Position numbers: made by a program. A DNA stretch of 61,564 nt, from the sequence record NC_049919.1. One strand, given 5' to 3'. This document shows, piece by piece, positions 48,001 through 51,000 of this stretch; the stretch's first letter is position 1; each line of letters opens with the position of its first letter. This stretch comes from Escherichia phage SH2026Stx1.

Positions 48001-51000
48001 AGCCGGATGGCAGCGTATGGATAAGTCCAGGTTTTACGCCGCAGTGTCTGATCAACAAAGGCACCATACCGGCGACTGAAAAGTCTTTTTTTAAAACATC
48101 AATCCCGTCAGGCAAAAGTTGTTTTTTCTTTATCAGAACAGAGAAGAAGGCCGATGTCATGTACACGCATGAACAGATTGATGGATATCATGCACTAAGG
48201 CTTCATGTAATTGCCAGGGGAACGAACCCTGGTGTTACGACGGTTTATGCTTTCGCGAATATGGTTACTCCACCTTCTGAGTATGGTATCGCCATGTATA
48301 ACCCGGACGGTGAGATGATTTATCATGGCGAAATGATGCTGCTTGACGCGAAGTTAATACCTGTTGATATCAAATTTGAAAAGGACCTTGGATATCCATG
48401 CGCAATCATGCCTGCACTGGTCGGGTATTATAACTGGAAAAGAACTCCTTATGATCGACCGATTTATACCACATCCACTGGTGCTACAGGAAATAAAATA
48501 TATTCCTGTGAGCATTATTCCGGTGGTGCAACATGGGATATTCGAAAGCCGTATATAGATAAGGTCCTGGTTATTAATACATCAGTATATGATTAGTTGA
48601 AGCGAGTCTTTAATATTCATTTAAAATGTCTAAAAAGATGTATTATTAAAAAGTTTAGCGTGTTATCTGAAAACAGGATATCTTAAATGAAGAGTATAGC
48701 AACACTGGTTGTGTGTGCAATCTCCGGGATTGCCTGTGTAAATTTATCTGCACATGCAGCAGAAGGAGAGCATACAATTTCTCTGGGGTATGCGCACTTT
48801 CAGTTTCCGGGACTGAAGGATTTTGTAAAGGATGCGACTGCTCATAACAGGGAGACTTTCAGTCATTTCATCAACAGAAACTACTTTTCTTCATTGGGCG
48901 AATATACAGATGGTCGGGTCAGTGGATATGAAGGCAAGGATAAAAATCCACAGGGCATTAATATCAGGTATCGCTACGAGATAACGGATGATTTTGGCGT
49001 TATCACCTCTTTTACATGGACGCGTTCTCTCACTAACTCACAGACATTTATTGATGTGCAGTCAGCCGATCATAGCAGGAAGATTAAGAATCCGGCAGCT
49101 TCTGCCGGAACGGATATCAGGGCGAATTACTGGAGTCTGTTAGCGGGGCCTTCATGGCGGGTTAATCAGTACATGAGTTTATATGCGATGGCAGGGATGG
49201 GCGTTGCTAAAGTTAGCGCTGACCTGAAAATTAAGGACAATATTAACAGTAGTGGCGGATTTTCTGAAAGCAACAGCACGAAAAAAACCTCCCTTGCGTG
49301 GGCTGCAGGTGCACAGTTTAACCTGAATGAGAGTGTTACACTGGATGTGGCTTACGAAGGTTCCGGCTCTGGCGACTGGCGCACGAGTGGCGTTACTGCT
49401 GGCATTGGCCTGAAATTCTGACCTGTATCCGGTAACCGTTTACTACCCGCTGTGATGGCGGGTTTTTTATTGCCCGTACAGGGCAAAAACCGTAAATTAT
49501 GCGTGGGTGCCTTTCGGCTGATGGCTGGAGGGTGAACCTGAAGGCCTGATGTGGAAAGGCCCCGAGTCAACTTAACGTTAACCCGAGGCCCTAACACTTC
49601 GTACCTTAAGCAAGTAGAAGGTTAGCGCCTCTCTGTAAAAGGAGTCAAGCGCTATGTCGCAAAAATCGCTTATCACCGTCACAATTTGCATGACGGTTAT
49701 CTTCACCATCTGGATGTTGCACGGTTCACTGTGTGAGTTCCGGCTGAATTTGTGGGGAGCGGAGTTTGCGGCGTTCTTACAGTGTAAGCAGTAGGAAAAC
49801 CGCGACGGGGACGAGAGTCCCCGTCAACTGGTTGCTGAGGTTCAGCCGATATGGCACCCGTTTCAGGTGAGAGAATGAACGATAAAATTCTCTGGTATAT
49901 GCAGCGTGTTGTGAGAAATTCCCGCAACCCTGAATTTATGAATGAAGTTAAAGACGCCTGCCTTAAAAAGCAGGCGTTTTGTTTTGAGGCACCTGATGGC
50001 TTTTTGGTGCTGCGTTCTGTGCTCAGTGCTGATGGTATCCCTTATGTTCTGGTGTTGCTGGGCGTGTGTACGGGGAGTAACAGCGTTGAGCGTTACCTGC
50101 CGGAGGTGAAGACATTAACCCATCTGGCTGGCGGACGCTGGGCTGAGTTCCATACGGCAAGGCGGGGATTTATCCGGCTGGGAAAACGACTGGGCTTTGA
50201 GCGAATGCCGGATGATGAGGATGGCTTCATGGTGTTCAGGATAGCGGTCTGACTGCTACAGTTTTCATCATTGTGTTTAAACCAACATTGTAATTCACAT
50301 TCTGACCCTGCTCCGGCAGGGTTTTTTGTTATCCAGGGGGCCATTATGGGTGGAAGTAAAGGCGGTGGTGATACCAAAGTAAAACCAACAGCAGCGCAAA
50401 TAGCACAGGAAGAAGTGGCCTGGAAAGGGTGGCAGGATTACAAAAATATCCTCCGCCCGGCTGAAGATAACTTCATGGAAAAGGTCGATGACCTGAACAG
50501 TGAGCAGCAGTACGACAATATTGCTGGCACCACAAATCTGGGGTATCAGAAACAGTTTGGCGAAGCACGGAAGGAGCTTGCGGGTAATCTTGCTCAGTCC
50601 GGCGTTGACCCATCCAGTGGTCGTTTTAATGCGGTAATGAATGCGAACCAGAGTGACCAGGTAACCGGGCAGATTGACACAACCACACGGGGGCAGGTAT
50701 CGCAGGCAGATAAGTATGTTGCCGGGCTACAGGATGTTGCTGCTCTCGGTTCTGGTCAGAAGGCGGATGCGTTACAGAGTTTTAACTCTCTGGCAGACAG
50801 CAGTCTGGCAAAAGCTAAATCGGATGCACAGGCGGCGTTTACGAAACAGCAGGGGCGAGCCTCTCTTGTTGGCGCTGGTCTGGGTGCGGCAGGTGCATAT
50901 GCGATGCATAAGGCTGGCGGTAGCGGAGGAAGTGGCGGTGCTAAAACACCTGGCACCGGCGCTAATGCCATTCAGCATCAGGCTCAGAACTGGAGACTGT

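Follow-up and report, generated by a model that had tools for sequence, protein, structure and literature searches.

Escherichia phage SH2026Stx1 carries, behind its lom gene, a short open reading frame (ORF) for a Hok-like membrane peptide that is not preceded by a mok leader frame. The question raised by this locus is whether a hok gene lacking mok can be part of a complete hok/sok-type type I toxin-antitoxin system. We analyzed a stretch of 61,564 nucleotides from sequence record NC_049919.1, which as a whole is referred to as the window; it is a Shiga toxin (Stx)-converting phage of the 933W/VT2-Sakai (Sp5) type. Positions 49470-49863 of the window probably form a complete and self-contained hok/sok-type cassette, which sits as a moron after lom. 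This is indicated by a toxin ORF under purifying selection, by a predicted mRNA whose two ends fold back onto each other, and by a predicted Sok-like antisense RNA with good comparative support.

Toxin gene and absence of mok

The toxin gene is located at 49654-49794 on the plus strand, starts with ATG and encodes a Hok/Gef-family membrane peptide of 46 amino acids, MSQKSLITVTICMTVIFTIWMLHGSLCEFRLNLWGAEFAAFLQCKQ, which contains the motifs SLCEF and EFAAF. A Hok-type frame of this length with both motifs had been proposed in a preliminary description of the locus, and this proposal is borne out by the exact coordinates and by a Pfam match above the gathering threshold (PF01848, HOK_GEF; 33.2 bits against a gathering score of 22; e-value of 4e-8; profile positions 6-42 of 42). 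The peptide was also matched by PHROG 251, "MokW-like host killing" of the moron category (e-value of 2.8e-24), and by the NCBIfam HokA/Hok models at equivalog and subfamily level, with e-values of 9e-10 and 6.5e-5 and scores under the models' own cut-offs in both cases. Hydropathy is maximal in the N-terminal part, at residues ~5-22. When aligned with HokW, HokC and HokB, the residues C12, T14 and L26-C27-E28 are kept. Across 31 relatives of the peptide, the LCE motif and a C-terminal GAEFAAFLQCKQ are near-invariant, and the conserved C-terminal pattern of the subfamily reads GSLCE.R....GAEFAAFLQCKQ. The toxin ORF is under purifying selection: the ratio of non-synonymous to synonymous polymorphism (pN/pS) amounts to 0.39 for the whole ORF and to 0.26 when only codons 24-46 are considered, and a comparison of two Stx-phage copies, the window and locus L013, revealed seven synonymous and no non-synonymous differences. 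A Shine-Dalgarno sequence, AAGGAG, can be read at 49639-49644 on the plus strand, 9 nt before the ATG; it is conserved in comparison with hokW, hokC and hokB as well as within the subfamily.

The toxin as such is not new, since it is already annotated, catalogued and reported to be toxic. The original 933W record does not contain the ORF and annotates only lom and L0129 in this region, and to this extent the earlier statement that the ORF is unannotated is correct; it does not apply to RefSeq/PGAP, where the ORF is now named "Hok/Gef family protein" (WP_000078907.1). In addition, one phage record labels it "MokW-like host killing". An identical peptide is listed as 72_1589 in the "high-abundance" cluster 72 of the survey by Escalera-Maurer et al. 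(bioRxiv 10.1101/2025.08.07.668861), a cluster which also includes the peptide 72_1621. According to the supplementary tables of this survey, 72_1589 was cloned as LRP157 and entered an arabinose-induced toxicity assay; according to its text, 42 of 45 constructs were toxic, and LRP157 is not among the three non-toxic constructs named there (bioRxiv 10.1101/2025.08.07.668861). On the account given in the survey text, over-expression of the identical peptide is toxic, and the toxin reading was not refuted by this check, which the preliminary description had suggested. The survey was restricted to coding sequences, and Mok, Sok and the mRNA ends were explicitly set aside in it (bioRxiv 10.1101/2025.08.07.668861). 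Taken together, the Pfam match, the alignment of the leader with those of hokW, hokC and hokB (see below) and the toxicity stated in the survey support the initial assignment of the locus to the type I toxins of the Hok family.

As had been noticed previously, a Mok-like overlapping frame is missing. An in-frame TAA is found at 49636-49638, upstream of the toxin ATG, and no plus-strand ORF starting with ATG, GTG or TTG overlaps the hok start in the window. The position corresponding to the mok start codon of hokC and hokW reads ACTTCG. For comparison, relatives of the cassette were drawn from E. coli RefSeq matches and from exact-protein look-ups. All of 26 relatives have an in-frame stop at a distance of 9-39 nt before hok, and they share no conserved leader ORF. 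Two substitutes for mok were considered and rejected. A 24-amino-acid GTG ORF at 49551-49625 ends before the hok Shine-Dalgarno sequence, and its start codon is not conserved, as Salmonella-type copies have neither ATG nor GTG at this position. Out-of-frame ORFs which enter hok occur in only 8 of the 26 relatives and differ in their starts. Judging from these alignments, the lack of mok appears to hold for the whole subfamily. In plasmid R1, translation of mok is mandatory for translation of hok (PMC9841398) and, therefore, the mok-less subfamily departs from a feature which defines the family.

Predicted RNAs and a proposed switch at the ribosome-binding site

A promoter for the toxin mRNA is predicted at 49470-49498 on the plus strand, with a -35 box TTGCCC (49470-49475), a 17-nt spacer and a -10 box TAAATT (49493-49498). 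The -35 box coincides with the left edge of the conserved cassette, and positions T1, A2, A4 and T6 of the -10 box are conserved to at least 90% in 27 relatives. The predicted full-length hok-type mRNA comprises ~359 nt from 49505 to 49863, both ends being predicted as well. The Rfam family RF01794, called "sok", in fact models the sense-strand hok leader from the 5' end of the hok mRNA to the hok AUG; its position 1 aligns at 49505 in the window and at the equivalent GGGTGCC in five relatives. A scan for hok/sok elements, which had been proposed as a check, returned a full-length match (model positions 1-157) on the plus strand at 49505-49667 with an e-value of 5.2e-6, although its score of 35.6 bits remains below the gathering threshold of 59. 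Scores of this kind explain why no RNA feature is annotated here. With the predicted transcription start at 49505, the leader is ~149 nt long instead of the ~170 nt assumed before. It aligns block-wise with the leaders of hokW, hokC and hokB, namely in GCGGGTGC at the 5' end, GAAAGGCCCCGAG, CCCGAGGCC and AAGGAG.

The two ends of this mRNA are complementary. A tac-like element, GGGUGCCUUUCGGCUGA, is found at the 5' end (49505-49521, plus strand; inverted repeats I9, I6 and I2), and an fbi-like fold-back element, UCAGCCGAUAUGGCACCC, forms the right edge of the cassette (49842-49859, plus strand; inverted repeats I6 and I9). GGGUGCC..UCGGCUGA in the former and UCAGCCGA..GGCACCC in the latter can form helices of 7 and 8 bp, both 100% complementary, with a duplex energy of -32.7 kcal/mol. 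The minimum free energy (MFE) structure of the full-length mRNA (-155.4 kcal/mol; z = -6.6 compared to shuffled sequences) contains this 5'/3' helix. All 26 relatives possess the fold-back, and its helix 1, the terminal 7 bp, is 98.9% paired. In helix 2, seven pairs are changed on both sides, with CG/UA, GC/CG and AU/GC occurring in 10 sequences each; its pairing of only 77% is due to an imperfect MAFFT register in tac and fbi. A permutation test based on duplex energy does not depend on the alignment, and here cognate 5' and 3' ends paired better than permuted ones, as only 33 of 5000 permutations reached the observed mean. The entire closed structure is 92% paired in the 26 relatives, compared to at most 46% in slid registers. 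Since the fold-back element sits at 49842-49859, the unit does not end at 49840, as suggested initially, but reaches ~49863. The GC hairpin reported to follow the ORF was confirmed as a perfect inverted repeat of 9 bp at 49804-49825 on the plus strand, 10 nt past the stop codon (GACGGGGAC-GAGA-GUCCCCGUC; inverted repeat I5), whose arms GACGGGGAC and GTCCCCGTC are 100% complementary. It is 99.1% paired among the relatives, and five of its pairs are changed on both sides (GC to CG in 10 and GC to AU in 8 sequences). As a separate observation, this hairpin (49803-49826) resembles a terminator on the minus strand only, with the tail CGGTTTTCCT; no minus-strand gene that it might terminate is evident nearby.

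A Sok-like antisense RNA, which had been left to be located, can be placed in the leader as a prediction with good comparative support. The search yielded a candidate of ~59 nt on the minus strand, from ~49611 to ~49553 (each end within ~3 nt), while its promoter stayed below the threshold of the scanner. This predicted antisense promoter (49648-49619, minus strand) consists of a -35 box TTGACT (49648..49643), an 18-nt spacer and a -10 box TAACCT (49624..49619). In 933W, the annotated 5' end of sokW is preceded by TTGCCT, 17 nt, TAACCT and 6 nt to the transcription start, and TAACCT occupies the same relative position here. On the plus strand, AGG(T/A)TAG and CAAG, both belonging to the antisense promoter, are invariant in 27 relatives, and among the non-coding blocks of the cassette, conservation is highest in the -10 box, with 86% mean pairwise identity. 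The predicted RNA would have a single-stranded 5' tail of ~19 nt, a 16-bp hairpin (49592..49556) and a UCC tail, with a folding energy of -27.2 kcal/mol; its U-run (49557..49555) lies partly inside the stem. In size and layout it is similar to known Sok-type RNAs, i.e., sokC with 59 nt, sokB with 57 nt and sokW with 71 nt.

The comparative data differ strongly between the two strands. Read on the minus strand, the hairpin is 97.2% paired and includes 55 G-U pairs, compared to 82.1% and a single G-U pair on the plus strand. On average, it folds at -21.6 kcal/mol on the minus and at -13.3 kcal/mol on the plus strand (-26.5 and -11.9 kcal/mol in the window), and the minus-strand form is the more stable one in 27 of 27 loci. 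None of 500 shuffles reached the observed pairing, and slid registers gave 70% at most. Such an asymmetry in G-U pairs and energy is expected only if a minus-strand RNA is under selection. Variability within the cassette is highest in the segment underlying the 5' tail of the antisense RNA and the target loop (58% identity), as would be expected if recognition specificity diversifies among paralogues.

Around the ribosome-binding site (RBS), two further hairpins were found. The "open" target hairpin, GAGGC-C-CUAAC...GUUAG-C-GCCUC, extends from 49585 to 49631 on the plus strand and exposes the loop CUUAAGCAA (49605-49613); its GAGG (49585-49588) stands where hokC and hokW have the Shine-Dalgarno sequence of mok. 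It is 93.5% paired in 26 sequences, and its changes from A-U to G-U are valid on the sense strand only. The "closed" hairpin at 49623-49654 on the plus strand hides the RBS by an outer stem, UAGCGC/GCGCUA, and an inner stem, in which CUCU (49631-49634) pairs with GGAG (49641-49644); these stems are 99.4% and 81.7% paired in 26 sequences, respectively, and the hairpin is part of the full-length MFE structure. Since bases 49623-49631 are common to both, the open and the closed hairpin are mutually exclusive. Further upstream, a ucb-like box, GAAAGGCCCC (49554-49563, plus strand), is an alternative partner of the mRNA 5' end. It is 90% complementary to 49506-49515 (inverted repeat I2), and in the Rfam model the counterpart of this pairing is the first long hairpin. 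In the full-length MFE structure, the partner of the tac element is fbi at the 3' end; in that of an mRNA trimmed by its last ~35 nt, it is 49554-49563. The latter structure, computed in silico, holds both the tac/ucb stem and the target hairpin. In the window, the modeled probability of the Shine-Dalgarno sequence being unpaired is 0.01 for the full-length mRNA, 0.31 for the trimmed form and 0.02 when the Sok target is blocked; the family means are 0.017, 0.084 and 0.018, respectively. This folding model suggests that the hok RBS is controlled directly and not via mok. Beyond this, we consider it a real possibility, if somewhat short of probable, that the 46-amino-acid cluster 72 represents a mok-less form of hok/sok which has kept the tac/fbi/ucb/dcb switch, in which the downstream box would serve as anti-Shine-Dalgarno sequence for hok itself and antisense binding would re-form the RBS hairpin without leader-peptide coupling, and that Stx phages carry two hok systems which do not cross-react.

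Spread of the cassette, proposed mechanism and alternatives

The whole cassette, with the toxin gene on the plus and the antisense RNA on the minus strand, covers ~395 bp (49470-49863) and is sharply bounded in its similarity to other sequences. The 501 bases around the locus are 100% identical to 933W, VT2-Sakai, many Stx1 and Stx2 phages and E. coli O157:H7 prophages. Outside the Stx-phage context, similarity spans only 49485-49859, with 77-92% identity; in copies from unrelated contexts, it begins at a -35-like TTGCC and ends a few bases past GGCACCC. Cassette copies with 77-100% identity were detected in 1750 of 5426 complete E. coli genomes, and the subfamily also occurs in Salmonella, Citrobacter and E. 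albertii. In Stx phages, the copies follow lom; in P2-like prophages of E. coli and Salmonella, they lie behind ogr at the prophage end. A lambdoid prophage has its copy between J and a tail-fibre gene, a genomic island of O157 also harbours the cassette, and tandem copies occur in Salmonella. These are typical moron positions, and the cassette is an extra gene unit after lom in the window. Upstream, it is adjoined by the Ail/Lom gene at 48687-49421 and a terminator at 49445-49463. A predicted promoter of its own and the position behind the lom terminator fit expression in the lysogen.

Combining these elements, a weak constitutive promoter would give rise to a stable mRNA of ~359 nt, which would be silent at full length because its 5' end is locked to the 3' end and its RBS is buried in a local hairpin. 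Slow trimming from the 3' side would strip off the fold-back partner, whereupon the 5' end would move to 49554-49563, the target hairpin at 49585-49631 would form and the RBS would open. The short-lived antisense RNA of ~59 nt (~49611-49553, minus strand) would pair with this trimmed form, probably followed by RNase III cleavage; the pairing would also free the 3' arm of the target hairpin, so that the RBS hairpin could re-close. As there is no mok leader ORF, control would act directly on the hok RBS and not via coupled translation. If antisense synthesis stops, whether by prophage loss, by phage-imposed transcription shut-off or upon induction, toxin would be made and the inner membrane would be depolarised. 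As the role of the cassette, we consider addiction to the prophage or killing of the host upon transcription shut-off most likely; assistance in lysis, as for hokW, may be considered as an alternative.

Several points weigh against this reading. Both RNAs of the locus are predicted ones. A scan for consensus promoters returned no site on either strand at the locus, and both predicted promoters match the sigma-70 consensus in only 8 of 12 positions; consequently, their placement rests on conservation and on the analogy to sokW. With RF01794, the tested members of the subfamily score 31-55 bits, whereas canonical loci reach 110-118 bits and the gathering threshold is 59. The antisense hairpin is followed by three U's only (UUUCC) and, thus, termination is not assured. 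The cut point used for the trimmed mRNA was assumed by analogy to R1, and in about half of the relatives, the modeled RBS opens little or not at all upon trimming. Furthermore, the relatives share phylogeny and, therefore, the shuffle statistics overstate their independence. Finally, since mok is mandatory in R1, a locus without mok could be poorly translated in its native form.

Some of these points would also be in line with a decaying hok relic, a passively carried element which has lost mok and whose own mRNA never yields any toxin: there is no mok ORF, the leader does not reach the gathering score of Rfam and both promoters are weak by consensus. Several chromosomal hok loci of K-12 have been reported to be inactivated. 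Nevertheless, we regard a relic as unlikely, because the ORF is under purifying selection, with its low pN/pS in the C-terminal half and exclusively synonymous differences between two Stx-phage copies, and because a strong AAGGAG at ideal spacing is conserved. In addition, the fold-back, the post-stop hairpin, the antisense hairpin and both switch hairpins are kept via compensatory or wobble changes in E. coli, E. albertii, Citrobacter and Salmonella, the cassette has spread to several unrelated prophage positions, including tandem copies, and the peptide is toxic when expressed according to the text of the survey mentioned above.

Alternatively, the toxin could be functional without an antisense partner, being controlled by folding and processing of its mRNA or by read-through from the late operon, with the minus-strand hairpin as a mere by-product. 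This is very unlikely in our view. The antisense transcript is indeed a predicted one, its terminator tail UUUCC is poor, and RNAalifold pairs six positions of the antisense region on the plus strand; however, a by-product does not account for 55 G-U pairs compared to one and an advantage of ~8 kcal/mol for the minus strand in 27 loci, nor for an invariant -10 box that is the same as in the experimentally supported sokW (PMC8621323). Dependence on read-through is further argued against by the lom terminator directly upstream of the cassette. A complete hok/sok-type cassette remains the preferred reading of 49470-49863.

Among the cassette copies, some show peculiarities. A collection of species-representative genomes contained only seven loci, three of which are listed under implausible organism names, namely L006 (Xanthomonas pisi), L007 (a Planococcaceae metagenome-assembled genome) and L009 (Vagococcus sp.); their peptides are 76-100% identical, and contamination of those assemblies is most likely. 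Two Salmonella loci carry two diverged tandem copies ~490 bp apart (L021, 1501-1641 and 1991-2131; L022, 1501-1641 and 1995-2135), which in L022 adjoin a YafO-type toxin gene. In another Salmonella locus (L024, 1316-1400), unrelated sequence takes the place of the promoter and of ~50 nt at the mRNA start, including tac; antisense region, ORF and 3' elements are retained. Judging from its sequence, this copy may be inactivated or driven differently.

Downstream of the cassette lies an ORF of 133 amino acids, a homologue of L0129, whose annotated ATG at 49851 falls within the fbi element. The PHROG 610 profile aligns to its product only from residue 9 and, therefore, its true start is probably the ATG at 49875, which is preceded by GGTGAGAG. 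Inside this ORF, a terminator-like hairpin is found at 49953-49986 on the plus strand (GACGCCTGC-CTTAAAAA-GCAGGCGT, then TTTTGTTTTG). It is the first good intrinsic terminator on the plus strand past the cassette, which is odd within a coding sequence, and it gave weak Rfam matches to models of terminator-bearing small RNAs (sRNAs). Only two Rfam matches in the window exceed their gathering thresholds, the STnc100 sRNA at 25322-25535 on the plus strand (195 bits) and the lambda cIII thermoregulator element at 6287-6345 on the minus strand (88.5 bits).

Comparison with known hok systems

The system closest to this locus by phage type is hokW-sokW of 933W/Sp5. It is a working toxin-antitoxin pair which promotes lysis and phage release after induction; when it is deleted, growth arrest is delayed by 40 minutes and phage yield is reduced two-fold (PMC8621323). 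In the same paper, R1 hok/sok is cited as lowering the plating of T4 (PMC8621323). Neutralization of the toxin by the antitoxin, involving RNase III-dependent duplex decay, an unstable antitoxin and a stable mRNA, has been described for hokW-sokW (PMC8621323) and for R1 (PMC9841398). That the locus described here is simply the published hokW-sokW has practically no probability left despite the shared phage type and the record labeled "MokW-like host killing", as this identity is refuted by the coordinates and sequences of 933W, where hokW/mokW/sokW is found at 58460-58734 on the opposite strand, ~13 kb apart from the present locus at ~45406-45906, and where HokW (51 amino acids, MKQQKAM...YESEK) shares only 15 identical positions with the toxin in a global alignment of 51 columns. 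Likewise, the window contains none of the hokW primer and probe sequences. At its right end (61000-61564), the window stops within a gene for an LPD5-domain protein, at the same place as the deposited Stx1-phage genomes AU5Stx1 and AU6Stx1; if collinear with 933W, hokW-sokW would fall ~0.9 kb past the window end. No other hok-type sequence was found in the window using tblastn and blastn. A second hok-like toxin at 1650-1715 was considered due to weak tblastn hits (e-values of 0.05-0.8) and rejected: the respective 52-amino-acid frame, 1620-1778 on the plus strand, is not matched by Pfam and runs opposite to a DUF4222/PHROG 285 gene at 1616-1867 on the minus strand, which points to chance similarity.

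Thus, Sp5 and 933W carry two hok loci, of which only hokW-sokW has been studied (PMC8621323), and a second hok locus of the phage is not mentioned in that paper. The hokW-sokW deletion mutant of Sp5 still has the present locus, which is 100% identical in the VT2-Sakai records. If our reading is true, the published phenotypes of the deletion were measured with a second hok system present, and the modest phenotypes may understate the share of Hok in lysis timing, Stx-phage release and prophage stability. In the literature searched, four aspects appear to be undescribed: the second hok locus of 933W/Sp5, the bounded mobile cassette, the placed antisense RNA and the mok-less subfamily. Searches by motif and accession found no main-text paper on mok-less hok loci or on the toxin peptide, which turned up only in the supplement of the survey on cluster 72; that survey does not describe the lom-adjacent Stx-phage locus, the bounds of the cassette, the absence of mok or the antisense RNA. 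The subfamily seems to function without mok, which is held to be essential in the textbook model, and would, if confirmed, constitute a natural experiment on the rewiring of this switch. The subfamily as a whole escapes the Rfam model at its gathering score, and these RNAs are therefore left unannotated.

In comparison with hokW-mokW-sokW, the locus belongs to the same phage lineage and to the same family of toxin and leader, and the -10 box TAACCT of the antisense promoter is shared. In contrast, hokW has an in-frame mokW, the sokW hairpin has a 20-nt insertion, and the hokW leader exceeds that of the present locus by ~20 nt. Between hokW/sokW and the present locus, the recognition tails are predicted to cross-pair weakly (-15 and -19 kcal/mol) compared to cognate pairing (-40 and -43 kcal/mol).

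Like hok/mok/sok (parB) of plasmid R1, the locus encodes a small Hok membrane toxin on a long, structured mRNA with a predicted tac/fbi fold-back, features which define hok mRNAs (PMC9841398). Further similarities to R1 are an alternative pairing of the 5' end with a ucb-like box, a hairpin made up of the former mok Shine-Dalgarno position and a dcb-like box, and a short cis-encoded antisense RNA in the leader, predicted here to have a single-stranded 5' tail and a long hairpin. Unlike R1, it lacks mok and has a strong AAGGAG of its own, which is predicted to be sequestered; the toxin has 46 instead of 52 amino acids, and the locus resides in a prophage, not on a plasmid. With hokC (gef) and hokB of K-12, it shares the conserved leader blocks GCGGGTGC..., GAAA(A/G)GCCCCGAG, CCGAGGCC and AAGGAG, and in sokC and sokB, too, an antisense RNA, there of 57-59 nt, overlaps the leader. 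The K-12 loci reach 110-118 bits with RF01794, compared to 35.6 bits here, and they have annotated mok ORFs starting from an ATG after GAGGCC, whereas ACTTCG and a closed frame are found at this place in the window; in hokC and in hokW alike, mok is an in-frame N-terminal extension of hok with its ATG just past GAGGCC. The basic picture is unchanged by these differences: among type I toxin-antitoxin systems, the locus still belongs to the best-known family.

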